Part shown: one piece after another, positions 20,526 through 53,478 of the stretch
Layout: each line of letters begins with the position of its first letter
Position numbering within the stretch: position 1 is the first letter of the stretch
DNA from: a virus
Lineage: Duplodnaviria; Caudoviricetes
IMG/VR virus record: IMGVR_UViG_3300021400_000126
Span: 32,001 to 96,000 of that record
Strand: one strand, 5' to 3'
Length of the DNA stretch: 64,000 bases
The notes under the pieces: generated by a model
Told to the model about the DNA's origin: nothing
Database searches by the model: none
Seen by the model: the letters and a program-made list of their open reading frames with translations, nothing else
Program-made: the position numbers and the translations under genes

Positions 20526-20556
20526 TTAATGCGGTTGCGCCGTCTTGCGGAGCTTC

Positions 20557-20938: not shown

Positions 20939-21078
20939 CTTTAATTCCCTCCTTTTTTCTTCTTATATAAATTATAGAATATTTTTTTTAACTTTTCAAC
21001 TTTTCTATTGATTTTTTATGAAATTTATTATATAATAATTATATAAAGAATAAAGGATAAATAAAGGGGGTATTTTTT

Positions 21079-21378: not shown

Positions 21379-21382
21379 TAAT

Positions 21383-22763: not shown

Positions 22764-23040
22764 TATAGAAAAGCCGAATCATTGCTTACATTGCCCCATG
22801 TGTAATGGCGATGACAATTGTGTGTTAATACAAGAGATTGATACTTCATGGGATTGGGAAGAACAGTATGCTAATTGTCCACTGCAAAAGGTTGAACCAG
22901 AACGGAAGAAAGGGAAGTGGATAGACACTGGAAGTGGTCAGGAATGTTCTGAGTGCCACGAAATCCAATATGGGTACGATAGTTTTCGATACTTTTGTGC
23001 ATTTTGCGGAGCGGACATGAGAGAAGGTGAAGAAAAATGA
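22741..23040 (+). CDS. Zn-ribbon protein
   Basis: KGKW...CSEC...FCAFCGADM. Confidence 0.7.
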   Translation: MSRMIQIDIEKPNHCLHCPMCNGDDNCVLIQEIDTSWDWEEQYANCPLQKVEPERKKGKWIDTGSGQECSECHEIQYGYDSFRYFCAFCGADMREGEEK

Positions 23041-23375
23041 GATTGATTGATGCAGATGAAATAAGAATTAAACCAGAATATATGCATGATATATGTGGCT
23101 CAGTGATGATTAGGGTTGAGGACGTAGCAAGAATCATAAGCGAAATGCCTACTATCAACCCACAACCGCACTGGACTCCCTGCAATGGGAAAAAGCCAAA
23201 TCTTTCACAAGAAGTATTGATGTCGGACGAATTTGATACAGTTCGTGTAGGTAGTTTAGAAAAATACGTTGATGGAGATTATTATTGGGAAGATAGTCAT
23301 GGATATTTTTATGATGTCGATGATTGGGTGGCTTGGATGCCACTCCCAAAACCATATAAGGAGGAAGAAGAATGA
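23037..23375 (+). CDS. DUF551-like protein
   Basis: MRLIDAD N-terminus, VAWMPLPKPY C-terminus. Confidence 0.7.
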   Translation: MRLIDADEIRIKPEYMHDICGSVMIRVEDVARIISEMPTINPQPHWTPCNGKKPNLSQEVLMSDEFDTVRVGSLEKYVDGDYYWEDSHGYFYDVDDWVAWMPLPKPYKEEEE

Positions 23376-23926
23376 AATATATAGTTGACCTGCCAGATGC
23401 ATACACCTCAGAATCTGCATTATTTGGTGATATTCTTAGTATTCCAATCTGTCTTGAAGGTGGTAAACGCTATGGGATTCCAACTGGAATTAAATTAGAA
23501 CCATACACCGAGCCTGACAGAGAAGCTATAGAAGATGAGGTATGGGAGTTTGCGAGAAAAGTCGAATATATGGACATCAGAGAAAGAGAAGAAGCATTTA
23601 ATATCCATTACCCATTCAACCAGATGTCTTACAAAGAAGCTAAGTCCAAATACGAAGTATGGAAGAGAACCAAAGAGATTCGTGTGGGCGATGAGGTTGA
23701 GTATGATAAGAGAGGAAGAATAATGTGTAATCACGAATTGAAAAGGCTTTTTTATACAAGTGATGATGATTATGATATTCAATCCTGTAGAGTTGAATTA
23801 GAGAATGAAAAGGATAAATACACTTTATGTTACTGTGAAAAATGTGGCCAAGTTTTTGTAATGGAAATTACTGAAAAAAAGAATGAATCACTAGCGAAAC
23901 CTATATTTGTCAAGTGCAAGGAGTAG
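23372..23926 (+). CDS. hypothetical protein, IRVGDEV family
   Basis: paralog of 25211..25732. Confidence 0.7.
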   Translation: MKYIVDLPDAYTSESALFGDILSIPICLEGGKRYGIPTGIKLEPYTEPDREAIEDEVWEFARKVEYMDIREREEAFNIHYPFNQMSYKEAKSKYEVWKRTKEIRVGDEVEYDKRGRIMCNHELKRLFYTSDDDYDIQSCRVELENEKDKYTLCYCEKCGQVFVMEITEKKNESLAKPIFVKCKE

Positions 23927-24384
23927 AAACATCGCCATTATGAGAAAGGATGAACAGGATGAAACTTGAAATTCCAATAAAAGTAGATTTTGATGATATT
24001 CAAGACATGGTTGACGAAATTAAAAGATTATAGACATACAAGCTGTTCGAAGGCGATGATATGGTGCTTGTTGATCTCAATGCTGTGGTTGCTATTATAG
24101 TAAATCATATCAAGACAACATATAATTCTTCGGAATCTCCGAATGATTGGATATCATATACACTTGAAATAATGCCAGAAGAAGGTGAAAAAGACTATTA
24201 AGATGAATAAATTAATTCACACATTTAAAAATCCTAGTTTTGAAATAACTTTTACTTTTCGTAAAACCTATATAAACAAAGAACTTATATGCGATATGTT
24301 AGGAATTACAGGATATAAAAGAACTGAAATATTATTCCCTAAAAAGAAAAAAAGAGGAAGTAAAAGAAGAAGGAGAAAAACAAA

Positions 24385-24678
24385 ATGAATAATAAAGATA
24401 CTATATACAGACAGAATGCAATAGATGCAGTAGTAGAGTTATGTAAGCATTATACGCCTACAAAAAGCGTCAAGCATCCACACATTGATTTTGTCATAGA
24501 AGAACTAAATAATGTACCATCTGTACCGCTAGAACGCAAGAAAGGAAAGTGGATATATTACAACCATAACGGTTTTAAGTGTTCAAGATGTGGTAGTTAT
24601 CTAGAGATTGAATGCGGTGATGTAAAAATGAACTTCTGTCCTAACTGTGGAAGTTACAATGGGAATGAAGAGGAATGA
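24385..24678 (+). CDS. Zn-ribbon protein (FCPNCG)
   Basis: motif. Confidence 0.7.
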   Translation: MNNKDTIYRQNAIDAVVELCKHYTPTKSVKHPHIDFVIEELNNVPSVPLERKKGKWIYYNHNGFKCSRCGSYLEIECGDVKMNFCPNCGSYNGNEEE

Positions 24679-24890
24679 AAATAAGAAATTATGAAATAAA
24701 AAGAAAATGCAGTGATCCGAGATTCCTTGTTGTTATAACTTGTCAAGGACAGTCATTTTACTATTGCTATCAAGGTCTTGCAGGTGCGGTTGTTGGTTAC
24801 TGCAAACAGTATCTTACAAAAAAGAAGTACGGAACAATGAATTTTAAACTGCGTGAGGTGCTGGTTACCGATGATTTTGAGGAGGACTAA
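24675..24890 (+). CDS. hypothetical protein
   Basis: N-terminus duplicated at 22371. Confidence 0.65.
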   Translation: MKIRNYEIKRKCSDPRFLVVITCQGQSFYYCYQGLAGAVVGYCKQYLTKKKYGTMNFKLREVLVTDDFEED

Positions 24891-25199
24891 ATGACAGACA
24901 TTAGATTTTACATACCTGAAGATGAAACAATACCAACAGATTTGTGTTTGTATGTAGGAGATGTGTATGTCACATACAAAAGAATCCAAGGTGGATTCAG
25001 ATTTCACATTTCTCTTGATGATGAAGAAAAAGCTATGGAAGTAGCGAAAGAAATTATTCAGCAGATGAAGTTAGATCACGATGAACCGCAACACGGAGTA
25101 TCATGGAGAACAGTTTCAATAGAGGTTGTTCCACAAGAAGAAAGATATAAATTTGGCACGATAATTGATTGGAAGTACAGAGTGAGAGACTCTTATTGA
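24891..25199 (+). CDS. hypothetical protein
   Basis: GGAGG RBS. Confidence 0.7.
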   Translation: MTDIRFYIPEDETIPTDLCLYVGDVYVTYKRIQGGFRFHISLDDEEKAMEVAKEIIQQMKLDHDEPQHGVSWRTVSIEVVPQEERYKFGTIIDWKYRVRDSY

Positions 25200-25210
25200 A
25201 GGAGGACTAA

Positions 25211-25732
25211 ATGGCAAAATATATAATTGATATACCAGACGATAGAATTGGGGATTTTGTAGGAAGTACACATTTACTAATGCCTTATACAATGGCAGAA
25301 CATAAAGGGCATCACGATACAGGCTTAAATCTGACTCCCTATACCGAGCCAGACCGCAAGGCTATTGAGGATGAGGTTTGGGAATTTGCACGAAAAATGA
25401 TATCAACAAGTGAAAACGAAATGTCAGAAATGTGGAGATATACGACAAATTTTGGTGAGGTAATACATAACACAACTTACTCCGAAGCAAAAGCCAAATA
25501 CGAAAAATGGCGAAAACAGAAAGATGAGATTCGTGTGGGGGATGAAGTTATATATAATTCACGCATGAGAGCTGTTGTATTGAAACCAGAAACTGGAGAA
25601 AGTTACGGCACAATTCTTACAAGTGAATTTTCTACAATTATTGTTTCTCATGATGAATTAGAGAAAACAGGGAAGCATTTTCCAGAGGTTGTAAAACTAC
25701 TAAAGAAGATAAGAGAAGATAAAGAGAAATAA
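25211..25732 (+). CDS. hypothetical protein, IRVGDEV family
   Basis: paralogy, RBS. Confidence 0.7.
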   Translation: MAKYIIDIPDDRIGDFVGSTHLLMPYTMAEHKGHHDTGLNLTPYTEPDRKAIEDEVWEFARKMISTSENEMSEMWRYTTNFGEVIHNTTYSEAKAKYEKWRKQKDEIRVGDEVIYNSRMRAVVLKPETGESYGTILTSEFSTIIVSHDELEKTGKHFPEVVKLLKKIREDKEK

Positions 25733-25997
25733 TAGTTAAAGGTATAGAGATGCCAAAATGAAAATAATTATTTATCCAAATCGTGTTGAAGGAAATATTG
25801 ACAATTTAACTGAAGAAGAAAAAATTGCTCTAGAATATTTATTGGATATGATGGCCGCAATTAAACAACAAATTCTTTTAAGAAAGGCTTTGTTCAAAAA
25901 GGAGAATAAAAATATTTTTTAATTAAAGCTGCTAACCGCAGCTTTATTTTTTTAAAAAATTTTGATATAATATTTATAGAATAAAGAAAGGGAAAAG

Positions 25998-26921
25998 GTG
26001 ATAGGTATGGAAAAATTCTTTGTAGCGGATTCTTATAAGGATATGGAAGTAGTTGGAGAGCCTTTTGAGAACGCAAAAGGTAAAAAGGTGGTAAAAGTTA
26101 GAGGTAAATGTGATAAGTGCGGCGGCCTGGGAATCATCGTTTCAAGAATTGAAAATGGCAGACCTATTCCAATTCCTGTTGATAATGGGATTTGCTATAA
26201 GTGCGGTGGAACTAAGTTTATAACCAAGACTGTACGAGCTTATACTGAAAAAGAATATAATGCTATGCAGAGAGTCAAACAGCGTTTAAGAGAAGGGGCT
26301 GAGGCGGCTGCCGCAGCTAGAAAACAGAAATTACTCGACAATGCTGCAGAATATAAGCATCAGGTTGCTTTAAAATTAGGTTTTGGTGAGGATGAAAAGG
26401 CTTATCTTGTATATGGAGATGATACCTACGCCATTAAAGATGAACTTAAAAAGATGGGAGCAAGATTTGACCCAACTTTAAAATGGTTTTTCTCTTCAAA
26501 AGTAGAGTTACCTGAAGGTTATAACCTTTGTGAATTTAGTTTTGATGAGTTATATGATTATAAACCCATGATTAAATGGGCAGACTTCAAAGAAGATGCC
26601 CCCAATATTGTGCGGAAACGCATAGATAAATTAAAAGGTCCGTCCACTTCTATCTTTTATCCTGCTAATGAAAAAGATAGAATCCGCAACATCACCGCAA
26701 AAGTAAAGAGCATCCGCGGTTTTGAAGGATACTATGGATATACGAATATCTATACATTCACTTCTGAGGATTATGTTTTTGTGTGGATGACCTCAAAATA
26801 TCTTGAAATTGAAGCAGGAGATACTATTGACTTAACAGGAACTATTAAAAAATTTGATGAATATGCAGGCATTAATCAGACTTATTTAACTCGTTGTATT
26901 GTTAAAAAAATTGAACAATAA
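25998..26921 (+). CDS. protein with DnaJ-type CxxCxG Zn finger and probable C-terminal OB fold
   Basis: CDKCGGLG, CYKCGG; IKDELKKMGARFDP..KW; LTGTIKKFDEY.G..QT.LTRC. Confidence 0.7.
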   Translation: MIGMEKFFVADSYKDMEVVGEPFENAKGKKVVKVRGKCDKCGGLGIIVSRIENGRPIPIPVDNGICYKCGGTKFITKTVRAYTEKEYNAMQRVKQRLREGAEAAAAARKQKLLDNAAEYKHQVALKLGFGEDEKAYLVYGDDTYAIKDELKKMGARFDPTLKWFFSSKVELPEGYNLCEFSFDELYDYKPMIKWADFKEDAPNIVRKRIDKLKGPSTSIFYPANEKDRIRNITAKVKSIRGFEGYYGYTNIYTFTSEDYVFVWMTSKYLEIEAGDTIDLTGTIKKFDEYAGINQTYLTRCIVKKIEQ

Positions 26922-27015
26922 TCTCTCATAAATCAATAGGAGAAATCTCCTATTGATTTTTTTATAAAAATATGATATAATTATATATATAAAGAAAAAA
27001 GAGAGGTTTTTTCTT

Positions 27016-27732
27016 ATGATTTTTAATAATGAGTTAGTTGACAATATTTTAAATGCGGTATTTCCTTTACCAGAAAAATTTGGTATAGTATTATATGCTA
27101 ATAAATATGAAGAAGATGAATTACTTCAAGATATAGAATATAATATTAAACAAATTGACCCTATGGCATCTATTGAATATGGAATGTCAAAAATGGTAAT
27201 TATGTCTCCAAGGTTGAAAAATGTTGTTATTAAAATTCCTTTTAATGGATGTTTTGAGGAGGAACTGGATTTATATACCGCAAAGCGTAAAAAAGTATGG
27301 GAACCTTTCTCTTGGGCTCCCTGCTCCAATACTTCTGACTATTGTTTAGCAGAATTTGAAAAATTCGATAGACTAAAAACATATGATTTAGATTGTTTTG
27401 TAGCAAAAACGATTTATTATAAAAATATTTTTGATACAAACGTTTTTATTCAAGAGCAAGTCATTCCTGTGAATTATTCTGAAAAGATTTATAAACCATC
27501 AAAAAAATCTCGTGACATTGCTGAAAAATGGCATGAAGAAGAAAAAGTTTATATGGATACTGATTGGATAGCAAATTGCATTGATAAATATGGACAATCA
27601 AAAGTAGAAAGATTTTTAAATTATTGTGAAAATATAGACCCTGATATATTAGAAGACACGCATGGTGGGAACTATGGATACAGGAATGATGGAACTCCCG
27701 CGCTTCTTGATTTTTCTAATTTTTTAGATTAA
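27016..27732 (+). CDS. protein-kinase-like fold protein
   Basis: VVIKIP, AE, DTHGGNYG catalytic loop, LLDF. Confidence 0.7.
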   Translation: MIFNNELVDNILNAVFPLPEKFGIVLYANKYEEDELLQDIEYNIKQIDPMASIEYGMSKMVIMSPRLKNVVIKIPFNGCFEEELDLYTAKRKKVWEPFSWAPCSNTSDYCLAEFEKFDRLKTYDLDCFVAKTIYYKNIFDTNVFIQEQVIPVNYSEKIYKPSKKSRDIAEKWHEEEKVYMDTDWIANCIDKYGQSKVERFLNYCENIDPDILEDTHGGNYGYRNDGTPALLDFSNFLD

Positions 27733-27742
27733 GGAGGTAAAA

Positions 27743-28246
27743 ATGAGTCGTTCACCTTTCTTTTTTGTTGAAAGATTTGATAAAAACACTAAAAAATATG
27801 AAATTCAACATCCTATTATATGGAATTATAATCATACCAAGCAAGAAATGGCGGATTTGTTTCCTTACAATGGACACCATGACCTTTTCTCTATTGTAGA
27901 AAAAAGAGATGATTTTCCGCACATGTGGGGAATTCATCAGGATTTACCAAAAGATGTTGCATTAGAAATAAAGAAAGCCTATGATGATTGTAGTTATGAA
28001 AGTGAATACGCAAATGAAAAACATCTTTATACGCCCACCGCTCGTTGGTTTACTTATGCGGATATGTATATTTATTACTTAGAACATCCAGAAGTTCTTG
28101 ACCATGACTCATTTGATGAAAAAGTTATGATACCAAATCCTATTAAAAGTCTTATAAATCGAGTTAATGCTTTTCTTGAGGTTATGGATGAATGGGGCTG
28201 GAGAGAGGATTATAGTTTAATTAGAATTGTCTATTGGATTTGTTAA
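27743..28246 (+). CDS. hypothetical protein
   Basis: AAGGAGG RBS. Confidence 0.7.
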   Translation: MSRSPFFFVERFDKNTKKYEIQHPIIWNYNHTKQEMADLFPYNGHHDLFSIVEKRDDFPHMWGIHQDLPKDVALEIKKAYDDCSYESEYANEKHLYTPTARWFTYADMYIYYLEHPEVLDHDSFDEKVMIPNPIKSLINRVNAFLEVMDEWGWREDYSLIRIVYWIC

Positions 28247-28487
28247 GGAGGTTTTTATGGATCGTTGTATTTATCAGAAATCTTACCCCAATATTTCCTT
28301 TGGTCCAAGAGAAGTATGGTGTGAATTAGGTATTAATAAAAAATGTGAAAATTGTGTTTACTATTGTTCAAAAGAGGATTATGAAGATAATCAAGTAGAT
28401 TATGAATACGAAAGATATAAGGACTCTCTTGATTATTAAAAAAAATTATGATATAATATATATATAAGATAAAGGAAGGGTGATTTT

Positions 28488-28739
28488 ATGAGTAAGGAAC
28501 TTTGGTATTGGGAGTATATTTTAAAAATTTGGAATAGTGTTGATGACCAGGAAGAGTTTAGGTCAGGAGTAGTTGCGGCAACCAGTTTTTCAGAAGCAGC
28601 AGATTTAATTGAGCAGTATTATGGCGATGAAATTATGGATATTGAAACATTAAAACCTATTGTTGATACTGTTTTTGATTTTGATGAAGTTAGAGAAGAT
28701 GACTCTTTTGATTTTCATATTAATGAAAAGGGGTATTAA
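28488..28739 (+). CDS. hypothetical protein
   Basis: promoter, RBS. Confidence 0.65.
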   Translation: MSKELWYWEYILKIWNSVDDQEEFRSGVVAATSFSEAADLIEQYYGDEIMDIETLKPIVDTVFDFDEVREDDSFDFHINEKGY

Positions 28740-28742
28740 ATA

Positions 28743-28952
28743 ATGAATAGTTATTATTTTTATATGGCGGAAGCTGAAGGTTTATTACCTACTCGCACTG
28801 GTAAATTAAATGCCGTTATTGCAGATGTTAAAAAATATCCTGAACCAAGTATTGATATTTATCACTTTGAACAAATTCTAAATAAACATGGATTAACTTA
28901 TAATCAACTTACTAGAAAAGAATTAAACTATATTGAAAATGGTATTCGTTAA
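28743..28952 (+). CDS. hypothetical protein
   Basis: ORF track. Confidence 0.6.
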   Translation: MNSYYFYMAEAEGLLPTRTGKLNAVIADVKKYPEPSIDIYHFEQILNKHGLTYNQLTRKELNYIENGIR

Positions 28953-29031
28953 TTTGAAAAAATAAAAAATTTTTGATATAATAAGTATATAAAGAATAAG
29001 AAAGAGCATTTTTTAAAGGAGATATGATTTT

Positions 29032-29421
29032 ATGGAAAATACAGTAAAAAAGACAAAGGCTATGTATTTTGCAGAGTTAAAAGATATGGTAATGGAAGCA
29101 GAGGAAATTACAGATGAGCTTAAGGATGAATTAGTTGATTTCCTTGATAAGCAGGTCGAGGCTATTGAAAAAAGAAAAGCGGCAGCTGCCGCAAGAGCAG
29201 AAAAGAAGAAAGCAGAATCTGACGCTCTTACAGATGCAATTTTTGCCGTTATGACTGAAGAGCTTATGACAGCAGATGAAATTATGGACGCCCTTGAGGA
29301 TGAAACCGCCACAAAGAATAAGGTTACTGCAAGATTAACTAAGTTAATTAACGCAGAAAAGGTTGTAAAAGAGACTATTAAAGTAGATGGTAAAAGGAGA
29401 ATGGCTTATAAGTTAGCCTAA
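29032..29421 (+). CDS. winged-HTH protein related to the MTKREMF family
   Basis: TKAMYFAEL...KVTARLTKLI..KVVKE. Confidence 0.75.
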   Translation: MENTVKKTKAMYFAELKDMVMEAEEITDELKDELVDFLDKQVEAIEKRKAAAAARAEKKKAESDALTDAIFAVMTEELMTADEIMDALEDETATKNKVTARLTKLINAEKVVKETIKVDGKRRMAYKLA

Positions 29422-29474
29422 TACTACTAAACGAAAGGGTGGGAATTGTCCCACCCTTCAAGCTAGGAGAAAAT

Positions 29475-30266
29475 ATGTTTTGTTTAAATTATTATCCTTT
29501 TTAGAAATATATTTAGGATGCTGAATAGTTAAAGATTAAATATCGTGCGGCAGACCGCACTTTAGAAGATTTTTTAAAAAAGTATCAAGATAAAAGTATT
29601 GTTATTAAAATTTAGGAACCTTTTGAAGATACTGACGCGGTTTTGTTAAAAGGTTTATTTGATAAATATCAAAATCTTAAACTTATTATAGATTTTGATT
29701 ATAAATAGGGTTTATCTTTAATTCAATAGTATCAGATTCCATTTTTCTTCTCTAATCCTGTTGGTTCTATTGATATATTATATGGTTTTTTAAAATATCA
29801 GCCTACAGATATGTATATTTGTGAAGAATTAGGATTTTTTCTTGATAAAGTTAGTAAAATATTGCATAAAAATAATATAAAAGTACGAGTTTATCCAAAT
29901 ATATGCCAATCTAGCTTTTCTGATACCCCTAGTTTAAAAACATTTTTTATTAGACCAGATGATATTCCTGTTTATAAGGTTTTTGTTGATGTTTTTGAAC
30001 TTATATCAGATCCAGAACGTCAATAGGTCTTATATAAAATATATAAAAACGAAAAGTGGTTTGGAAAAATTAATGAAATTATTCCTTCTTTTAAAGATGA
30101 ACTAGATAACAAATATTTATTCAATACTTCTTTTGGTGTAATTAGGAGTAGTTGCGGGAAAAGATGTTTATATAAACCTGGAACCTGTGATATATGTAAT
30201 CGTTTTATTGATGTTGCAAAAACACTTGAAAATAAACATATAGTTGTTTTAAAACGTAAGAAATAA
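29475..30266 (+). CDS. 263-aa hypothetical protein (TAG read-through; weak U32-like resemblance)
   Basis: AGGAG RBS; frame continuous through several TAGs; C-terminal C..C...C..C cluster. Confidence 0.65.
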
Positions 30267-30328
30267 ATTTGATTTTTTTATTATTTTTTGATATAATATA
30301 AATATAAAAAATAAAGAGGTATAAATGG

Positions 30329-30640
30329 ATGGCGGCAAAAGGTAGTATTTTAAAGAAAGAAATTGCTAATAAAATTCTTGAGATATTTCCTAATAGCTTT
30401 TTATATAATAATGATAAAGAGATTAGAATTAACGGGAATGAGAATGGAGAAGAGTTGCAGATAAAAGTAACTTTTACAACTGCAAAAACAAAGGTTGAAA
30501 ATGAAAATATTTTATTTTCAGACAATAATAGTTCAACCCCCATGAAACCAACAGAAAACGTGGTTGAAAAACATCCTCAGGAGCCAACTCAAGAAGAGAA
30601 AGAAAGATTAACTTTTTTATTAGATAAGTTAGGATTATAA
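30329..30640 (+). CDS. hypothetical phage protein
   Basis: promoter, RBS. Confidence 0.7.
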   Translation: MAAKGSILKKEIANKILEIFPNSFLYNNDKEIRINGNENGEELQIKVTFTTAKTKVENENILFSDNNSSTPMKPTENVVEKHPQEPTQEEKERLTFLLDKLGL

Positions 30641-30937
30641 ATGAATAAAAAGCCTCATTTATATAAATTAACCACTTGGGAATCTTATAAAAAATGGTTT
30701 ATTAATGATGTTACAAATCTAAGCGGAGTTTCTTCAAAGTGGTATGTGCCGATGCGAATTTTGGATATTTCTATTGAAGATTATATTTACTTATTAAAAA
30801 AATTTAATGCAAAAGGAATATCTTATTATGCTCCAACAGATTTTTTAAGTTTTTATTTTTCAAAAGAAAAAGATGCAAAGAAATTTTGTTCATATGTTAA
30901 TAATATAGCTAGAGCAAAACAGTATTATTGTATATAA
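30641..30937 (+). CDS. hypothetical protein
   Basis: ORF track. Confidence 0.65.
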   Translation: MNKKPHLYKLTTWESYKKWFINDVTNLSGVSSKWYVPMRILDISIEDYIYLLKKFNAKGISYYAPTDFLSFYFSKEKDAKKFCSYVNNIARAKQYYCI

Positions 30938-30949
30938 TAGGAGTTTGAA

Positions 30950-31837
30950 ATGATTCAGAATAGTGCAGATGTTTTAGATTTTGAAATAGAAAATGATGAT
31001 AATAATAATGATATTATTCCAAACTCAATAAAAATATATCTAAGAGAAATAGGTAAATATCCACTATTAACGCGGGAAGAGGAGAATAAAATCGCTACCG
31101 CCGCATTAAGTGGTGATTCAGAGGCAAAAGAAAAATTAATTAATCATAATTTAAGATTGGTTGTTTCTATTGCCAAAAGGTATATGGGAAGAGGTTTAAA
31201 TTTATTAGATTTAATTCAAGAAGGTAATGTGGGGCTTATTAAAGCTGTAGAGAGATTTGATGTATCAAAGGGTTTTAAATTTTCCACATACGCAACCTAT
31301 TGGATTAAACAATCTATTTCTTATGCTATTGCAGACCAAACTAGAAATATTCGTATTCCTCCACATATTATAAAATTAATTAATAGCATACAAAGGGTTG
31401 AACAAAATCTTTTACAAGAGAAAAAAAGAAAGCCAACACAAGAAGAAGTAGCAAAAATACTAAATATAGATATTAAAAAAATTAAAAATGCATATTCTTG
31501 GATTAAAGATACTACTTCTTTAGATATAGTAATTGGAAATGATGAAGATGCTACTATTGGTTCTTTAATTGAAGATAAATCAACTGAATCTGATTTTCTT
31601 TCAATAGAAAAAAAAGAAACTTCTGAGGTAATAGAAAATGTCCTTAATACTCTTAGTGAAAGAGAAAAAACCGTCATTATAAAAAGGTTTGGATTAGGGG
31701 GACATAAGGCAGAAACCTTAGATGAAATAGGAAAAACTTTAGGTTTGAGTAAAGAAAGAATTCGTCAGATAGAAAACTCTGCTTTAAGAAAACTTAGGAA
31801 TCCGCGGCGAGCACGAATTCTAAAAGAAATTTTTTGA
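30950..31837 (+). CDS. RpoD/SigA-like sigma-70 factor (regions 1.2-4, no region 1.1)
   Basis: [68 protein letters not shown]. Confidence 0.95.
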
Positions 31838-32270: not shown

Positions 32271-32369
32271 AAGACAGTTACAGCAAAAATATTACAATGT
32301 AGTGGTTTACAAATTGACTATTAATCAATCTTCGCTGGTTCGAATCCAGCATTGTTACGAAACTGTCTT
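32271..32369 (+). ncRNA. ACAGCAA-motif RNA copy 1, enclosing a tRNA-like module
   Basis: closing stem AAGACAGTT/AACTGTCTT; inner ACAATG/CATTGT, ATTGA-CTATTAA-TCAAT and GCTGG-TTCGAAT-CCAGC. Confidence 0.7.
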
Positions 32370-32374
32370 GATAA

Positions 32375-32449
32375 GGCCCCTTCGTCTAATAGGCTTAGGA
32401 CACGATCCTTTCACGGTCGTAATGTGGGGTTCAAATCCCCCAGGGGTCA
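32375..32449 (+). tRNA. tRNA-Glu(TTC)
   Basis: cloverleaf, loop CT-TTC-AC. Confidence 0.9.
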
Positions 32450-32456
32450 TTTCTTT

Positions 32457-32538
32457 GCGGCTATGGTGGAACTGGTTTACACGCAGGACTTAAAATCCTG
32501 TGATTTAATTCATGTGAGTTCGAATCTCACTAGCCGCA
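32457..32538 (+). tRNA. tRNA-Leu(TAA)
   Basis: cloverleaf, long variable arm. Confidence 0.9.
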
Positions 32539-32544
32539 TAATTT

Positions 32545-33075
32545 GGACTGTTGGCTTAATGGTGAAAGCAACTGGCTCATCTCTGGAAAGACTTATTTTT
32601 TAATAAAATGAATACAAATTTAATAGGAACAATTACAGAATTGAAATGTCAATTATATCTTTTAAATTTAGGATATACAATATCTGTTCCAGTTAATCCT
32701 GACAGATACGATTTAATTTTAGATACAGGAAAATAGTTATTAAAAATCCAAATAAAAACTTGCAACAATAATAAAGAAGGAGTTTTAACTTTTTCAACTT
32801 GTTCTTCTCATTATGTTCAAGGTAAACACGTTCACTCTTCCTATAAAAAGGATAATATTGATTATTTTATGACTTGTTGGGAGTAGAATTATTATTTAAT
32901 TCCTGTAGAAGAATGTGGTAAAAGAGAAAAAGTTTTAAGAATTTTACCAACTAAAAATGGTCAAATAAAAAATATATGTTTTGCTAAAGATTATATTGTT
33001 TAGGAGGTTCTGAAAAAAAGATAAGTAAGACGGAGATGAACCAGCAGATTCGGGGTTCAAATCCCTGACAGTCCA
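32545..33075 (+). tRNA. tRNA(CAT), probably Ile2, interrupted after the anticodon (exons 32545-32580 and 33039-33075)
   Basis: GGACTGT/ACAGTCC acceptor; joined halves give CTGG-CTCATAA-CCAG. Confidence 0.85.
32608..33024 (+). CDS. PD-(D/E)XK homing-type endonuclease inside the tRNA(CAT) insert (138 aa, TAG read-through)
   Basis: G.ITE, RYDLI, KIQIKT, Y....IDYF motifs of the I-Ssp6803I/PDDEXK_5 type. Confidence 0.85.
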
Positions 33076-33086
33076 GTTAAATATTT

Positions 33087-33160
33087 GGCCTGGTGGCTCA
33101 GCTGAGTAGAGCACTGCCCTGTCACGGCGGAGGTCGTGGGTTCGAATCCCATCCAGGTCG
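33087..33160 (+). tRNA. tRNA-Asp(GTC)
   Basis: cloverleaf. Confidence 0.9.
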
Positions 33161-33164
33161 TTAT

Positions 33165-33236
33165 GGCAATGTAGTTCAGTGGTAGAACGCCTGACTGTTA
33201 ATCAGGATGTCGAAGGTTCAATCCCTTCCGTTGCCG
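33165..33236 (+). tRNA. tRNA-Asn(GTT)
   Basis: cloverleaf. Confidence 0.9.
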
Positions 33237-33241
33237 TTTGT

Positions 33242-33312
33242 GGGCGGTTCGCTCAGTGGTTGAGCAGAGGACCTTTAATCCTCCTAGATGGGTTCGATTC
33301 CCATACCGCCCT
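33242..33312 (+). tRNA. tRNA-Lys(TTT) with atypical C33
   Basis: GAGGA-CCTTTAA-TCCTC anticodon arm. Confidence 0.75.
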
Positions 33313-33361
33313 TTATAACAAAATTTGATTTTTTTAAAAATTTTTGTTATAATATAAATAT

Positions 33362-33445
33362 AAGACAGTTACAGCAAAAATGATGGGTTATCAAGAAAAT
33401 TTTATATTAACAATTATATTAACTATTAATGATTTATACTGTCTT
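33362..33445 (+). ncRNA. ACAGCAA-motif RNA copy 2
   Basis: AAGACAGT/ACTGTCTT stem plus TACAGCAA, directly after a TTGATT/TATAAT promoter. Confidence 0.65.
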
Positions 33446-33460
33446 GAAAATTTAATAAGG

Positions 33461-33639
33461 TATATAATAATAACAATGGTGACTGAATTTAATAGTGTAC
33501 ATAAACATTCAGAGAGTCCACCACACTGCGGCGATCGGGAGAGTGAGATCATAGCAGACTACCTACTGGAGTCATGACCAGGGAATTCAGGCTATAGAGG
33601 AAAGGGAGCCTAAAAAATGGACGAAGTTATTATTATATA
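33461..33639 (+). ncRNA. putative structured RNA B
   Basis: perfect 14-bp terminal inverted repeat, several internal hairpins, GTCCA/TGGAC pairing. Confidence 0.55.
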
Positions 33640-33805
33640 AATATGTTGAAATGTGCGGCTAAGCATTGGGAAATACATTGCCTGGAATGCAATCAACACA
33701 CTCGGACAGGTAGAGCACATACATTTAGCGAGAAAAACTTTTAATTAAAACCTTGTGAGTTGTATAGGTTGATGACATTACGATGACATCAAAAAACTCT
33801 CTTTT

Positions 33806-33882
33806 CGCCCGCTAGTCTATACTGGTATTGAGGACAGCGGTCTCTAAAACCGCGGAGCTGGGTTCGATTCCCAGGCGGGTGA
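33806..33882 (+). tRNA. amber suppressor tRNA (anticodon CTA)
   Basis: CGCCCGC/GCGGGTG acceptor; GCGGT-CT-CTA-AA-ACCGC anticodon arm; CTGGG-TTCGATT-CCCAG T arm. Confidence 0.93.
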
Positions 33883-34123
33883 TTAAGGGTGTGCGGCCAC
33901 CCTTTAAGACGTCGTCAGGCTAGAGGATCCTGGATACACTTTCTTTTGAAAGACAAGTAACTCACCCACTAATCAGGGTGGTGATTAGTCAGCGGTTTGG
34001 TAATCACGCGGCCCCAGCCAAAGGGTAGCTAAAATAAGAGGTGGTTGATACGCCTAAGTATCCTAGAAAAGGTGCACATTTTCTAGTATTAAATGCGGTT
34101 ATATAATATCAAAACCGCATTTT

Positions 34124-35019
34124 GCTCCTTTAGTTTAATGGTAAAACAATAGATTTGTTCACCCAATTAAAAATAATTGGAAAAGAAAGATAAATATCAT
34201 GTTAGAAACAAAGCAAAAAGGTATTATAACTTAGCTTCAATGTTTAACAGCCTTTAATGAATTAGGTTTAAAAACTTCTATTCCATATGGAGAGAATTCA
34301 AGATATGATTTTATTGTAGACATAAATGGAAAATTACTTAGAGTACAAGCAAAAACAGCTTCTGGTATTTTAAATGAAAACAATGAATTAGCAGGAATTC
34401 GTTTTTCTTGTAGGTCAACTAGAGTATCTGCACAAGGTAATTTTTATAGAAAATACAATAAAGATGAAATTGATTATTTTTGTACTTTTTGGAATAATAC
34501 TTGCTATGTTGTTCCTGTTGAAGAATGTAGTAATGAAAAAACCTTAAGATTTATGTATCCATCCAATGGACAAAAAAATACAATTTCATTAGCAGAAAAT
34601 TATACTATTGAAAAACAATGGAAAAAATATCTACCTGAAAATAGTGAATTTGAAAAACTTAGAGATAATTTAAATATTATTTTATATGGAAATAATAGTT
34701 AGAATAAATGTAAAAAATGTGGAAAACCTATCTCTAAAACTGCAGAGTTATGTATATCATGTGCAGCATAGAAGCAACATATTGTAAAAGATAGACCTTC
34801 AAGGTAGGAATTAAAAGAAATGATTAGAATCCTTCCTTTTACACAAATTGCAGATAAATATCATATTACTGATAATGCAGTTAGAAAATGGTGTGATACA
34901 TAGAATTTACCAAGAACAAAATCAGAAATTAAATCAATTTCTGATGAAGATTGGATAAATATTTAATTTAACATGGGTGAACAAATCTATTGATCTCAGT
35001 TCAATTCTGGGCGGGAGCT
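34124..35019 (+). tRNA. tRNA-Thr(TGT), interrupted after the anticodon (exons 34124-34158 and 34984-35019)
   Basis: GCTCCT/GGGAGC acceptor; joined halves give ATAGA-TTTGTAA-TCTAT. Confidence 0.8.
34199..34966 (+). CDS. PD-(D/E)XK endonuclease with C-terminal Zn finger and HTH, inside the tRNA-Thr insert (255 aa, TAG read-through)
   Basis: KG.IT*, PYGENSRYDFI, RVQAKT, IDYF; CKKCG..LCISC; IADKYHITDNAVRKW. Confidence 0.85.
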
Positions 35020-35020
35020 T

Positions 35021-35095
35021 TGCGGGTGAGTGAAACGGAATATCACCGCTGGTCTCATAAGCCAGAGATAATGGGTTCGACTCCCATACCCGCAA
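35021..35095 (+). tRNA. tRNA-Met(CAT), initiator-like
   Basis: TGCGGGT/ACCCGCA acceptor, CT-CAT-AA loop. Confidence 0.8.
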
Positions 35096-35120
35096 TTATC
35101 TCATTTAAAAGGAGGAGAAC

Positions 35121-35675
35121 ATGGCAAAAGTTAATTTATCGCCGCCATGGGTGGAGTATTATAAAGAAGTTAGTGAGTTTTTTAGAGATGATTAGGAAAT
35201 CGGCGTTCTTTATGACGAAAATAAGAATGAATTAAAGATTTATGTAGACAATCCTGATAGAGCGGTTGCTCTTGCAGAATTATTCCCATTAGAAAAGAAT
35301 TTTGGAAATGTTAAATTATACATCTCTATAATTCCATCTAATAAAAAAGTAAATAACAATAAACTAAAAGTAGCTTATCCATCAACTGTTGCAGCTGCAT
35401 TAGCTAACTGCCCCGCGGTAGATAGTATTAGAGAAGTAAAAACATTTTTTGATATAGATTTAATATATGTTTTATTTAAAAATAAAGTAGTTCAATATTT
35501 CATAGATAATATTGGTGATTATAATGGAATGAAATCTACTTTATATGAAGACATTGCTAGAAATATATTTGAAGATGTAGATGGTGTATTTTTTTGCACC
35601 GCTTTACCTGATAATTTATCTTCATATACAATAAAAATGCCAGAAAATAGCATCACTTATTGTGGTTGTCAGTAA
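35121..35675 (+). CDS. hypothetical phage protein (LSPPW...D..G..STLYEDIA), with an in-frame TAG
   Basis: AGGAGG RBS; continuous frame with TAG read-through. Confidence 0.75.
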
Positions 35676-35713
35676 ATGAGATGTAAAATAAGTACCAGCT
35701 ATGCTGGTGCTTC

Positions 35714-35798
35714 GGAGAGATGTCCGAGTGGCTTATGGAGCTGGTCTTGAAAATCAGAGTACTGAAAGGTACCGCAGGTTCAAATCCTGCTCTCTCCG
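35714..35798 (+). tRNA. tRNA-Ser(TGA)
   Basis: cloverleaf, long variable arm. Confidence 0.9.
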
Positions 35799-35802
35799 TT
35801 TT

Positions 35803-36080
35803 GGGGTTGTAATGGTTTCGACGGGGATTTGAAAACCACAAACTCGTTCGAGTGATTTCGTTATCAATCAAACTTAAATATAAACGCTGATAATTATACA
35901 TATCAGATGGCTGCCTGAGTTTGCAGTCACCAAAAGACTATGAGATATTGCTGGTAATAGTTGAGGTTCAAAAACAAGCATATTAAAATTTTAAAACTTA
36001 AAAATAGCACATTCTTAAACAACGTAAAGGTTTGCGGTAAGTAGGGTTTTCGGACAGCGGTTCGATTCCGCTCAGCTCCA
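35803..36080 (+). ncRNA. ssrA: tmRNA, tag (A)ADNYTYQMAA
   Basis: 5' GGGGTTGTAATGGTTTCGAC; 3' GGACAGCGGTTCGATTCCGCTCAGCTCCA; tag ORF from 35886 ending in AA then TGA. Confidence 0.9.
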
Positions 36081-36128
36081 TTTAAAAATTTTTTGATTTT
36101 TTATAAAAATTATTTTATAATATATTAT

Positions 36129-36190
36129 AAGGCAATAACAGCAATATTTATGTTATTCCTAAACTGCAAATTTGGGTTAAAAATTGCCTT
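36129..36190 (+). ncRNA. ACAGCAA-motif RNA copy 3, with a Cys-anticodon-like stem-loop
   Basis: AAGGCAAT/ATTGCCTT stem; CCTAAA-CTGCAAA-TTTGGG. Confidence 0.65.
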
Positions 36191-36197
36191 GATATTA

Positions 36198-36230
36198 TGC
36201 CCAGTCGCTAAGCGGTAAGGCACAATAATT
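36198..36230 (+). pseudogene. 5' fragment of a canonical tRNA-Gln
   Basis: TGCCCAGTCGCTAAGCGGTAAGGCAC. Confidence 0.55.
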
Positions 36231-36233
36231 TTT

Positions 36234-36304
36234 AGGGGATTATCACAACAGTAGTGAGCATGGCTTTGACCCATGATACGTAGGGGCAGCACCTACATCC
36301 CCTG
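36234..36304 (+). tRNA. atypical tRNA-Gln(TTG)
   Basis: all four stems pair; D loop lacks GG; T loop is GGCAGCA. Confidence 0.7.
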
Positions 36305-39673: not shown

Positions 39674-42600
39674 ATGCCAATTTTAAATAATTTATATCCG
39701 CCTGTAGTTCCAGATACTATGCCGGCTTTCAATAGGGAAGAACAATGTAATATTGGTTTTTCTATTCCTATTTATAATTCAAAAGAAGATATAGCGGAAA
39801 ACCTTGTACAAATTTCAATAACAAATTTAAAAACAAATATTTCAGCTTTTAATAAAAAATTATATCCATCTGGAATAAAATTTGCTACAATGACTCCTGT
39901 TAATAATTTATATGGATATAATTATATAGTACCAATTAATAAAAATGATTTAATAAATGGCCGCTTTGAATTAAATACTTTTTATAAAGTTCAATTAAGA
40001 TTTACTAAAAAAATTGATAAAATATCAAAACCAAAAAAAGAAAAAGAAAGCGAATGGTTTGAATCTAACTCATCAAATTTTTCAGAATGGTCTAAGGCTT
40101 GTATTATTAAGGGTATTTCTGCCCCAACTTTAACTTTAAATAATTTTTCAGAAAATAATTCAAAAACCTCAGAAGTAATATTATCTAATCCTTTAATTGA
40201 TATTACTGGAAAATTAGTTTTTAGTAAAAATGAGAATGAATATTTAAAAAATTATAATATAAAAATTTTAGATGGAGAAACTAAAAAAATCCTTTTTAGA
40301 AGTGAAGATATTTATCCAACTGCAAAAAATGAATTTAACTATGTATTACCTTATGCTTTAAAAGATGGTGATACATATTTTTTATAGATTTCTTATATAA
40401 CAAATAATTCTTTTCAACAAACTAAACAATTTAAGTTTATTGTAATAGAATATTATGGAGTAGATAATTTAAATGCAGCTATTTCAACTTAGCCAAACTC
40501 CGATAATGGAACCATAAAAGTAACAATTACCTCTATTTTAGGAGAATCTTTTTTAGGAAGTTTTACAATTAGAAGAACTTCTTCTGAAAGTAATTTTTCT
40601 CTTTGGGAAGATGTAAAAACGGTTTCTTATGAAAAAAGTTAGCCATTAAATTATGTATGGTATGATAAAACTATTTAGAGCGGAGTTTTTTATAAATATT
40701 GCGTCCAAAAGCGCAATTCAAATGGAATACGAGGTCCTATTGTAAAACCTTAGGATAGCGGCAATAAATCATATGTAATGTGCGAATTTGAAGATATGTT
40801 TTTAACAACTGCTAATCAACAATTAAATATTAAATTTAATCCTGTTCTAAATGATTTTAAATATAATGTTACAGAATCTCAACAGGTTACAATAGGCGGA
40901 AAATATCCATATGTAAAAAGAAATGCAGATAATTATTTTAGAACCTTTTCTATTGGTGGTTTAATTAGTTCTTTTGTAGATACCTCTGATTGGTATATCC
41001 CTAGCGCGGAGTAGTCTTCAAATGGTTATGAATTTGATGAAAAAGGTGGAGAATTAAAAAATTTTACTTCTAAAAAAGAAATTTATAAAGAAAATCTTTC
41101 ATTATATTAGTAGTATAATGAAAAAAATCATATTTCTGAATATGAAGATTATATTTATGAAAAAAGATTTAGAGAAAAAGTTTATGATTTTTTATATAAA
41201 AATGATGTTAAACTTTTTCGGTCTAGTACTTAGGGGAATATTTTAATAAAATTAATGAATATATCTTTTCAACCAATGGAAAGTTTAAATAGAAGATTGT
41301 ATTCCTTTACTGCAACTGCTGTTGAAATTGATGAAGCTAATTTATTTAATTATAATAAATATAATATAAGTGTTATTGGTGATTATCTTACTCAAGTTGA
41401 AATTGTTAAAGATGTTTTTGGTGTTATTCAAGGTACTTATGCAAATAATACTAATATATTTGATTTAATAAAAAATAAATATAATAATAATATTGATTAG
41501 GATCGTCTTATTGAAATAAATTTTCTTAAATATTTAAAAATAGAAATTGATTCTTAGCCATATCCAGTTTATTATAATAAACAAACTAAACAAGTATAGC
41601 CATTAAATGATAATGCAATTTTTTCTGAATAGAATTTAAATTCAACTGCATTAGGTTATATAGTTACCATTAATGATAAAAATTATTTTATTCCTTCTCA
41701 AATAGAAAGAAAATCTATTTCAGACTAGAATATTCATAATGGATTTTTTGAATTAGATAATATTAAAATTACAAGTTTAAGTTTTCCGCAAGAAACAACC
41801 GTTCTTTTAACTTATACTGTATAGATTAAAGAAACAGAAAATCCTAATTATTTAATTAAAAGATTTAGTTATGAAGACGTTGTAGGTCAATTATATGGTA
41901 CTTTTAATCCTCAAGAATCTTTATTTAATTTAATTTATGTAAAATATTTTGAAAATGACAGTACATACTATAAAAGACTTGTAGATTTAATGGGCATTCG
42001 CGCAGAAGGGCCTCCTGGAGCAGTATTATATGTACAAGACTCAAATGATCAAGGATATTATAATAGGCACGTTTTAGAAAATGGATATTTGAAATTAAGA
42101 GATGATAATGCAACTATTTTTGGATTATATTTTAAAGGAATACATCTTATAAAAAGTAAAAATTCTATTAATTTTTTAAAATCAAATCGTTTAAAAATTA
42201 ATAAAAACAACATTGATTGGGATAATGTAAAAACCTATGAAAGTATTCAAGAAATTATAGAAAAGGAATCTAATCTTCAAAATGGAGATGTTTTTAGAAT
42301 ATTAAAATATGGAATTGAAGTAGATTCTTTTGATTCGGATGGTCATCCAAAAATTGATTTTTATAATGAGGGAACAACTGAAAACTCAGATAAAATAGTA
42401 AAAAGTTTTAAAGCATTATTTATTGCTTCTGAAAACTTAGATGATAATTAGGGCTGGATTGTTTCTATTGAAAATGAAGATAATTGGGGACAAGAAGTAC
42501 TTAATTAGATTCATGATCTTATGCTTAAAGAAATAAAAAATGATGATTCTTTAAAATATGTATATTATTATGGAGAATGGTATCCTATTTTAAAAGCGGA

Positions 42601-42856
42601 AGAATTAAGTAAAAATCTTTTAAAAACAGATATAAGACATATTAGAGATAATGAATATATTTTAACAAATGAAATATATAATAATTTTTAGGAAATAGAA
42701 AATATTATTCCTAATGGCGTTTATTATATTAATAATCAATATTATATTTATTATCATCAAAAATGGTATCCTTTTGATATGGATAATCATGATGTTTTAT
42801 GTCCAATAGATGGATTAATAGATTATTATTGTTAGATAGTGAGAGGAGCGTATTGA
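39674..42856 (+). CDS. large virion/tail protein (~1060 aa, TAG read-through)
   Basis: track ORFs 39674, 40778, 41255 and 41990 share one frame and are broken by TAG. Confidence 0.8.
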
Positions 42857-42860
42857 TAAA

Positions 42861-44930
42861 ATGAGTGAATTATCAAATAATTATAAAAATGTATATATAG
42901 CTGATTAGGCTCCTTATTTAAAAGATTCTTCTTTTTTAAAAGATTTTGATAAAGTCAAATTAAAAGAACAGTTTGTCAGAATTTTAGTTTTAACTTTTGA
43001 TGAAATTCCTATGCAATAGATTCATGGAAAGGTTATAAGTGGAAATATTTCATTAGACGGGACTTCCGCAATGAGAAGAACGTGCAATATTAATTTAATT
43101 TTGGATAATTCATAGATAACTTTAAACAATCTTAAAAATTTATTAAGTATTAATAAAAAAATTAAAATTTCAATAGGATTTACTAATGTTACAAATAAAT
43201 ATACTAATTATCCTATTCTTTGGTTTCCGCAAGGTACTTATCTTATCATATCTCCTAATATTACTCATAATACAAATGGAATTAATATTTCTTTAACACT
43301 CCATGATAAAATGGCTTTATTGAATGGAGAATGCGGAGGCGTTTTACCTGCTTCTGTTATTTTTCATGAAATAGAAGATGTTGATAGTGAAGGTAACACT
43401 TATATAACAAAGCCTACAATATATCAAATAATTCAAGAATTAGTTAATCATTTTGGAGGAGAGCAATTAGGGAAAATTATTATTAGTGATATAGACAATC
43501 AAGCTAGACAGGTTATGAGATGGACAGGTTCAACTCCATTATATTATTATGAAGAACAAGGAGGTACAAAACTTTTTACAACTTCTATTTCAAATTTACC
43601 TCAAAAGACTTCTTATACACAATATAACTATGGAGAAAATATTGGATATACTTTAACAGATTTTACTTATCCTGGTTAGTTAATTGGAAATGCGGGAGAT
43701 ACTGTTGTAACTATTTTAGATAAAATTAAAGATACTTTAGGTAATTATTAGTATTTTTATGATATTAATGGTAATTTTAGATTTCAAGAAATAAAAAATT
43801 ATTTAAATACCTCAAAAGCTACTGAAATTATAAAAAATATTTCTTCTTAGCATTATTTAGTAGATTTTTATAATGAAAAATCTGTCTACACATTTGAAGA
43901 TGGAGAAATTATTCAATCTTATTCAAATTCTCCTCAATTTCAACAAATAAAAAATGACTTTATAATTTGGGGAAAAAGAAAAGGATTGTAGGGGCAAGAA
44001 ATCCCAATTAGATATCATTTAGCTATTGATAATCAACCATTTTTTGGAAATACTAGATATAAGGTTTTTTTCTATACAGATCCTGAAGATAATATTAAAA
44101 AAGCTAAAATTCCTGAAGAGGGGAACCAACTACCTGAAAAAGGTGGTTTTAATAAATATTTCTTTTTAACTACAAATAATAAAATCTATAAATGGAATAT
44201 GGAAAAGAATCATTGGGATGAAACTACATATCAACTTTATAAAGAAAAAAATGCTACTTAGGCAGGTATTATTGCAAAAGATTTTAGAACAGAATTATAT
44301 TTATCTGGTTTATATCATGAAAATAAAGGAACTGAAAGCAATTATTATTTTGCAGAATTAAAAAATTAGTGGCCCAAAATCTATGATATTGAAAATGGAA
44401 AATTTTTTAATGAAATAGTTAAACATCCTAGTGATGTTGATTATTTTTTAGATTTTGTTAGTTATCCTGCCGCAGCTTCTGAGTTTAGTGTTTAGAATAT
44501 TGGACGTAGAACTATAACTATTGTAGATGATAAAATTAATTGTATTTTCTCTCCATAGTTTCCTAATGTAGTTTTAATAAATAATTCAATGGACGCCGCG
44601 GAAATAAAAGCATTAAGATAGGAATGTATAAATAGAGGACAATAGTGGTGTCAAGTAGATGATAATGTTTATTCTATGTTAGATGTTGGAGAAGGTTTCA
44701 GATCTGCTTTTGACTAGATAAAAAGATAGTTATTTCAATATACTGATTATAATGAACAAGTTTCTTTAACTACATTACCTATTTATTATTTAGAACCTAA
44801 TACTAGAATTTCAATAGAAGATTCTGAAAGTGGAATATATGGAGATTATATTGTAAAAAATATTTCTTTTTCTTTAGATATTAATGGAACTATGAACCTA
44901 TCTTGTTCAAAAGCACTAGAAAGGAGTTAA
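42861..44930 (+). CDS. tail/baseplate-associated protein (689 aa, TAG read-through)
   Basis: single frame; DKMALLNGECGG, YFYDINGNFRFQE, LPIYYLEPN. Confidence 0.8.
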
Positions 44931-44943
44931 AAGGAGGTAAAGT

Positions 44944-45690: not shown

Positions 45691-45692
45691 AA

Positions 45693-47831: not shown

Positions 47832-47847
47832 TAAGAGGTGATAATAA

Positions 47848-52437: not shown

Positions 52438-52509
52438 AAATATCTACCTTTCTTTTAAAAATATTTATGTAAACTAAAATTTTAATAATTTTAGTAATTT
52501 TCTTCTTTA

Positions 52510-53465: not shown

Positions 53466-53478
53466 ATCCTTTTCCTCC

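Follow-up and report, generated by a model that had tools for sequence, protein, structure and literature searches.

A suppressor tRNA(CUA) and the probable reading of TAG as glutamate in late genes of gut phages

A phage-encoded tRNA(CUA) very probably makes TAG a glutamate codon in the genome described here, and the meaning of TAG as glutamate in its late genes was supported by codon equivalence among related phages. In the explanation as a whole, which we hold to be highly probable, the charging enzyme, the lack of amidation and the timing of decoding are predicted from tRNA structure and gene order. The DNA analysed (64,000 nucleotides, hereafter the window) comprises bases 32001-96000 of a 133,306-bp virus record with 30% G+C and direct terminal repeats, rated 100% complete. 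Several studies of animal gut and bovine gut yielded metagenomes with DNA of this phage. The clade includes six complete genomes of 130-144 kb with 268-396 in-frame TAGs each.

The coding cover rose from 55% under code 11 to 84% when TAG was treated as a sense codon. No such gain was obtained with TGA as sense (58%), and the value of 76% with TAA as sense is what long chance ORFs would give in a genome of 30% G+C. By ORF calling, 361-384 TAGs are in frame, with 349 internal ones in 49 genes. The TAG-rich genes have late functions and encode the terminase, portal, head and tail proteins, a GH25 endolysin and homing endonucleases; the large terminase contains 12 TAGs, the portal protein eight, the endolysin seven and an ORF of 3010 amino acids 73. 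The replication genes for RecJ, helicases, the split PolIII alpha, NrdD, gyrase, NAD ligase and DnaB have between zero and two internal TAGs. In 13 genes, mostly early ones, TAG occurs only among the final 20 codons, and TAA or TGA closes the frame 0-17 codons further on; TAG probably still terminates translation in these genes. The sigma-70 family factor encoded just upstream of the tRNA island possibly drives middle or late transcription (Table 1). Outside the window, at genome positions 4134-9272, the DnaE-type PolIII alpha is split into two ORFs, the first with the PHP domain and the start of the NTPase domain, the second with the remainder including the finger and HHH domains. The two ORFs are about 1 kb apart, which points to an intein, intron or mobile insert between them.

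Table 1 Features of the window, numbered from its first base
Feature	Position	Strand	Basis or content
Early region, small genes without internal TAG	1..31837	+	ORF and TAG counts
Sigma-70 family factor, TAG-free	30950..31837	+	Sigma70 regions 1.2, 2, 3, 4
tRNA/tmRNA island between early and late blocks	32292..36304	+	ARAGORN, Rfam
tRNA-Glu(UUC), D stem GUCU/GGAC as in tRNA(CUA)	32375..32449	+	ARAGORN, Rfam 45.8 bits
tRNA(CUA), proposed TAG=Glu decoder	33806..33882	+	ARAGORN, Rfam, fold, family covariation, identity comparison
Late structural/tail genes, open only if TAG is sense	39674..48204	+	ORF calls, TAG counts
Late ORF	39674-42856	+	19 TAG
Late ORF	42861-44930	+	15 TAG
Late ORF	44944-45690	+	7 TAG
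Late ORF	45693-47831	+	11 TAG
Late ORF	47848-48204	+	4 TAG
Recoded late genes, minus-strand block	49852..64000	-	ORF calls, TAG counts
Late ORF	49852-52437	-	6 TAG
Late ORF	52510-53498	-	
Late ORF	55807-56295	-	8 TAG
Late ORF	56639-61693	-	23 TAG
Start of 3010-aa ORF, running past the window end	in block 49852..64000	-	73 TAG

The meaning of TAG was assessed in 57 related IMG/VR loci (67-95% identity), which were fetched with a terminase query and searched by tblastn with the complete protein set of the phage. In the queries TAG was written as X, and the subject codons were taken from the DNA. Opposite 85 TAG sites, these loci contained GAA 1074 times, GAG 179 times (together 1253 glutamate codons) and TAG itself 460 times; aspartate codons were found 180 times, glutamine codons (CAA or CAG) 111 times, lysine codons 78 times and a tryptophan codon once in about 2400. 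Most of the 12 TAG sites of the terminase faced only GAA, GAG or TAG. The ratio of GAA to GAG opposite TAG (6:1) tracked the glutamate codon usage of the genome (5:1) despite the two mutations that separate GAA from TAG, which argues for synonymy rather than mutational proximity. With empirical substitution profiles built from the same alignments, the log-likelihoods of the residues opposite TAG were -2994 for glutamate, -5688 for aspartate, -6292 for glutamine, -6429 for lysine and -11959 for tryptophan; glutamate was thus the best reading by about 2,700 units and exceeded glutamine by about 3,300. When each distinct residue was counted only once per site to dampen the effect of shared ancestry, glutamate still led by 68 nats and won in 2000 of 2000 bootstraps over sites. 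It was the commonest residue at 47 of the 64 well-sampled TAG sites; a few TAG sites aligned mainly with glutamine, aspartate, asparagine or lysine, which may reflect some mixed decoding. In the reverse direction, TAGs of the relatives fell on 44% of the glutamate sites of this phage as against 12% of its glutamine sites. Within the clade, glutamate gave the best fit for TAG in each of the six complete genomes.

Phages using TAG as a stop pointed to the same residue. In Enterococcus phage EF1 (standard code, 32-41% identity), the TAG sites corresponded to glutamate in 37% and to glutamine in 3% of cases, compared with baselines of 41% for glutamate retained as glutamate, 27% for glutamine retained as glutamine and 17% for glutamine replaced by glutamate. 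In the unrecoded relative MT836163, the respective values at TAG sites were 44% for glutamate and 10% for glutamine. The reading of TAG as glutamate had been proposed in the preliminary description from features of the tRNA, and it agrees with this independent codon evidence from the relatives and EF1, in which glutamine, lysine, aspartate and tryptophan performed far worse. Amino acid composition was mildly informative: adding TAG raised the glutamate share in recoded genes from 6.1% to 8.0%, compared with 7.3% in TAG-free genes, and TAG counted as glutamine would nearly double the glutamine share in recoded genes. The catalytic acids of the GH25 endolysin and of the GIY-YIG endonuclease are encoded by ordinary codons; one TAG of the endolysin aligned with a glutamate in PDB 4krt, a match that is not decisive.

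The tRNA(CUA) gene was called by ARAGORN at 33805-33883 and matched Rfam family RF00005 with 45.8 bits (E 1.2e-7; gathering score 29). Its lowest-energy fold (-29.3 kcal/mol) is a cloverleaf. The acceptor stem CGCCCGC/GCGGGTG forms the pairs C1-G72 and G2.U71 and is followed by the discriminator base A73; the CCA end is not encoded in the gene. The D stem GTCT/GGAC (G10-C25, U11-A24, C12-G23, U13.G22) is identical to that of the tRNA-Glu(TTC) of the same phage and encloses an unusually long D loop of 13 nt. The anticodon arm reads GCGGT-CTCTAAA-ACCGC, and the variable loop GGAG (4 nt) contains A46 and lacks position 47. All the sequence features listed in the preliminary description, namely the CTA anticodon, the shared D stem, C1-G72, U11-A24, U13-G22, A46 and the GGAG loop, were found. 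The gene is genuine and goes beyond a chance match, since its homologues in five complete relatives covary on the cloverleaf. Every one of the five complete relatives had a homologous tRNA(CUA) gene, as had further contigs, and these genes fell into four sequence types; pairing was kept in 96% of the cells of the alignment, and both partners differed in 8 of 21 pairs. No shuffle out of 500 performed as well, and only 36-45% of positions were paired in slid controls.

The version of the tRNA present in this genome was found nowhere else in a D-arm pattern search of IMG/VR, and GenBank phages contained no blastn match to the tRNA region. Metatranscriptome contigs from two bovine runs cover the locus, one of them spanning 33745-33923; possible DNA carry-over led us to set these RNA-library contigs aside as proof of expression. 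Directly 3' of the gene, at 33884-33908, lies a G+C-rich hairpin (AAGGGTG...CACCCTT) that may serve as a processing or termination signal. A promoter and terminator scan around the gene scored no better than shuffled sequence. One relative, IMGVR_UViG_3300021399_000007, possesses in addition to tRNA(CUA) a tRNA with the ochre-reading anticodon UUA (locus 2870-2944).

The identity elements of tRNA(CUA) were compared with those of 176 tRNAs from Clostridia genomes, among them 25 distinct tRNA-Glu. Invariant in the latter were G1-C72, G2.U71, C3-G70, A73, G10-C25, U11-A24, C12-G23, A13.A22 and a variable loop of 4 nt. The phage tRNA shares this set except for the orientation of the first pair, which is C1-G72, and the kind of mismatch at 13-22, where U13.G22 replaces A13.A22. 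It thus has the D arm and variable loop of the clostridial tRNA-Glu type; its acceptor stem has G2.U71, C3-G70 and A73 of this type but an inverted first pair. Further features in common with clostridial tRNA-Glu and the E. coli GluRS set are the non-Watson-Crick combination at 13-22, the missing position 47, U35 and A37. Unlike tRNA-Glu, it has a D loop of 13 instead of 8 nt, a Trp-like anticodon stem and the anticodon CUA in place of YUC (UUC or CUC). The difference between CUA and CUC is a single base at position 36, and CUC is the natural anticodon in 5 of the 25 clostridial tRNA-Glu.

The other candidate isoacceptors resembled tRNA(CUA) less. Clostridial tRNA-Gln, which like tRNA-Lys and tRNA-Trp departs from tRNA-Glu at most of the above positions, is characterized by U1-A72, G2-C71, G3-C70, C11-G24 and a 7-nt D loop, none of which is present in tRNA(CUA). 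No acceptor or D-arm pair typical of tRNA-Lys (C2-G71, C11-G24, U12-A23, C13-G22) is present. Clostridial tRNA-Trp has A1-U72, G73 and C11-G24, where the phage tRNA has C1-G72, A73 and U11-A24; its likeness to tRNA-Trp is limited to the anticodon arm (GGU-CUCUAAA-ACC versus GGU-CUCCAAA-ACC). In an unselected tRNA set from one Ruminococcus genome, tRNA-Glu ranked first overall for three suppressor types and tied for the fourth. The D arm of tRNA(CUA) and, but for its first pair, the acceptor stem match clostridial tRNA-Glu and not tRNA-Gln, tRNA-Lys or tRNA-Trp.

Across the suppressor family, G2.U71, C3-G70, C4-G69, C5-G68, U8, A9, G10-C25, U11-A24, A26 and the anticodon loop CUCUAAA were invariant. 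A non-Watson-Crick combination at 13-22, an enlarged D loop (9-13 nt) and the absence of U1-A72 were family-wide, and the first pair was C-G in three types and G-C in one (the G005-type relative). The anticodon stem varied between GCGGU/ACCGC and GCUGA/UCAGC, as did the pairs 12-23 and 13-22 and the variable loop. The constant part is the one that GluRS faces in E. coli, namely acceptor stem and 'augmented D helix' (PMC9976931). The preliminary description had drawn on U11-A24, U13-G22:A46 and the absence of position 47 as GluRS determinants; they are established for E. coli (Sekine et al. 1996, reviewed in PMC9976931). In part this basis holds only for the present genome: U13-G22 and the 4-nt variable loop do occur here, but the relatives have G13.A22 and 5 nt, and their TAG still fits glutamate. 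The body of tRNA(CUA) is not a simple one-base mutant of tRNA-Glu, because its anticodon arm is Trp-like here and resembles tRNA-Lys(CUU) in relatives (types C and D). In BLAST searches of clostridial genomes, the relatives' suppressor hit tRNA-Lys(CUU) by way of its anticodon and T arms; comparison over the entire molecule and at identity positions gave no support to a lysine origin of the acceptor stem or D arm.

Neither a class Ic synthetase (PF00749) nor a release factor (PF00472) was detected in five complete genomes in a search that gave matches in control genomes and that had been suggested along with the preliminary description. Since no phage synthetase was found, a host enzyme must charge tRNA(CUA). 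We propose that this is the host GluRS, because the acceptor stem and D arm are largely of the Glu type and CUA differs from CUC only at position 36. Non-discriminating GluRS accepts C or G at this position. In tRNA(CUA) it is occupied by A36, which replaces C36, a strong determinant of E. coli GluRS; this and the inverted first pair speak against the proposal. So does C34, as the GluRS of B. subtilis reportedly depends on U34 in modified form (PMC9976931), although natural tRNA-Glu(CUC) exists in Clostridia. Dual charging by non-discriminating GluRS has been described (PMC9976931). Host GatCAB would then leave the glutamate unconverted, given the missing U1-A72 pair and the enlarged D loop of tRNA(CUA). 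The requirement of bacterial GatCAB for U1-A72, on which the preliminary description had also relied, is documented, as is the rejection of tRNA-Glu through its extra D-loop base (PMC2811023). The chain from charging by GluRS through missing amidation to glutamate at TAG would be coherent and fits the codon data.

If tRNA(CUA) functions in amber reading in this way, TAG would be a glutamate codon for this phage. The early genes (replication genes, sigma factor and small ORFs) avoid internal TAG and could be read by the standard code of the host. The late genes with their approximately 360-380 TAGs, including the endolysin gene, would be completed only after tRNA(CUA) has accumulated. This presumed role of a suppressor tRNA in timing follows Borges et al. 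(10.1101/2021.08.26.457843). The endolysin gave matches, all weak, to three MAGs, one of Ruminococcus and two of Clostridia, and the phage tRNAs are Clostridia-like. No conclusion was drawn on these MAGs as hosts, their content of GluRS, GlnRS and GatB being incomplete or ambiguous.

Among the alternatives, ambiguous decoding fared best, although we consider it unlikely. TAG would be read mostly as glutamate with a sizeable share of glutamine, lysine or aspartate, and the phage would tolerate the mixture. U35 is a determinant for both GlnRS and LysRS, the acceptor stem and U11-A24 are common to tRNA-Asp, and the Lys(CUU)-like anticodon arm of the relatives' suppressor would fit as well. At about a quarter of the TAG sites the commonest residue was not glutamate; however, ordinary glutamate sites were equally spread (E 271, D 22, N 11, K 9), and the TAG sites of the conserved terminase mostly faced glutamate codons or TAG alone.

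The reading of TAG as glutamine, as in phage code 15, is quite improbable. It would require charging by host GlnRS through U35, by which E. coli amber suppressors are often charged, or glutamylation followed by amidation by GatCAB. Precedent speaks for it, as TAG=Gln and TGA=Trp are the only reassignments stated for phages with a code unlike that of their host (Borges et al., 10.1101/2021.08.26.457843). Glutamine was the commonest residue at two or three TAG sites, but its overall fit, its codon counts and its 3% share opposite the TAG sites in EF1 lay far below those of glutamate. The structure of tRNA(CUA) likewise disagrees with a tRNA-Gln or a GatCAB substrate (C1-G72, 13-nt D loop). Public databases translate the proteins of this clade with glutamine at TAG, and recent large phage surveys assume code 15. 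Many of the 120 top-ranking terminase homologues in the protein collection have glutamine exactly where the DNA of relatives has TAG; genuine CAA or CAG is almost absent at the terminase TAG sites in that DNA, and the closest terminase entry can be translated from its contig only with TAG as glutamine. Homologues from protein databases were consequently rejected for residue inference, as their glutamine is TAG translated by code 15.

The relative phAss-1 (OQ749652) was published with TAG=Gln and three suppressor tRNAs (Babkin et al. 2023, PMC10607447). It belongs to the proposed Phassvirus group and is distantly related to the present phage (portal 39% and terminase 44% identical), with which it has in common a genome size of about 136 kb, a large number of tRNAs, late genes containing TAG and a Firmicute-type host. 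The TAGs of phAss-1 fell on glutamine (10), aspartate (8), lysine (7) and glutamate (3) of this phage, while the TAGs of this phage fell on glutamate (19), aspartate (14) and glutamine (4) of phAss-1. The TAGs of phAss-1 thus fit glutamine best, in contrast to those of this phage, which fit glutamate, and codon equivalence is able to separate the two residues. Only one TAG site was common to both phages in the aligned genes, so that the two recodings look independent.

The insertion of tryptophan or lysine by a suppressor derived from the respective tRNA can practically be dismissed: the Trp-like anticodon arm, which the preliminary description had raised as a caveat, is real, and the arm of types C and D matches tRNA-Lys(CUU), but the arm is not conserved in the family, G73 and A1-U72 of tRNA-Trp as well as C11-G24 and C13-G22 of tRNA-Lys are missing from tRNA(CUA), and both residues fitted the TAG sites far worse than glutamate.

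With glutamate as the preferred reading, the system resembles known code-15 gut phages (crAss-like, Lak, Garnet, Topaz and other phages; Borges et al., 10.1101/2021.08.26.457843; Peters et al., PMC9523058) in the use of the standard code early and of TAG in late genes, and in having its own tRNA(CUA) and no synthetase. It differs in the residue, which is glutamine there and glutamate here, and, unlike in code-15 phages, no gene for release factor 2 was found in the five complete genomes. The nuclear codes of peritrich and other ciliates likewise read UAG, and also UAA, as glutamate; there a whole eukaryotic nuclear genome is recoded, whereas here a virus would switch the code in a standard-code host. 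Phage tRNA(CUA) genes within tRNA arrays are also known next to theta ribozymes (Kienbeck et al. 2024, PMC10879173). For those suppressors, the isotype was predicted to be Gln in 69%, Trp in 19%, Ile in 10% and Tyr in 1% of cases, and Glu in none (PMC10879173). In contrast to these systems, no ribozyme family, theta and HDV-like ones included, matched beside the present tRNA(CUA) in Rfam. A full-text literature search for TAG or UAG as glutamate returned ciliates only and no phage report.

It is likely that this clade of animal-gut Firmicute phages (about 130-145 kb) uses an undescribed viral code with TAG=Glu, which arose independently of the TAG=Gln code of phAss-1. The GluRS-facing parts of the tRNA would have been kept and the anticodon arm exchanged between lineages, and annotation pipelines would place glutamine at hundreds of glutamate positions per genome. 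The novelty would be that the recoding of a phage stop codon involves another amino acid and borrows another synthetase. GluRS would be a second host synthetase open to recruitment by a virus that switches its code, and two related phage lineages would have given one stop codon different meanings. Gene callers and databases are hard-wired for TAG=Gln or TGA=Trp. If TAG encodes glutamate in this clade, about 2% of the residues are wrong and lack a charge in every public translation of its late proteins, and folds, charge patterns and TAG-encoded catalytic or metal-binding glutamates are misread. Which features of the tRNA pass GluRS yet escape GlnRS and GatCAB is testable, and a natural glutamate-inserting amber suppressor could become a tool for Firmicutes.

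The island around tRNA(CUA) contains tRNAs for Glu, Leu, Asp, Asn, Lys, Met and Ser in addition to the suppressor, two interrupted tRNAs, a tmRNA and a tRNA-like gene with the anticodon UUG. The interrupted tRNA(CAU) at 32544-33076 is split right after the anticodon by an insert of 458 nt with an ORF at 32608-33024 (3 TAG). The tRNA-Thr(UGU) at 34124-35019 is split at the same place by an insert of about 825 nt, whose ORF at 34199-34966 (5 TAG) matches PD-(D/E)XK. When the flanks were joined, both tRNAs gave clean cloverleaves, and no group I or group II intron family matched at either of them. The tRNA-like gene at 36234-36304 (Rfam 46.7 bits) was missed by ARAGORN; it combines the anticodon UUG (Gln) with A1-U72, G73 and the T loop GGCAGCA, lacking the usual UUCGAAU. 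A borderline tRNA-like element at 32292-32358 has the anticodon ATT and a reduced D arm and scored 28.6 bits in Rfam, just below the cut-off.

The tmRNA lies at 35803-36083 in the same island as tRNA(CUA) (Rfam 101.9 bits) and encodes the tag peptide ADNYTYQMAA. Its presence is of interest as translation of late phage mRNAs would halt at TAG until the suppressor has been made. Adjoining the island, a TAG-free protein of 529 amino acids with DUF2828 and DUF7788 (TROVE/Ro60-like with vWA) is encoded at 37322-38911, and a weak match to YrlA (Y RNA-like) was found at 33128-33195. Together they may represent a phage module for RNA quality control of the Ro/Y-RNA type.
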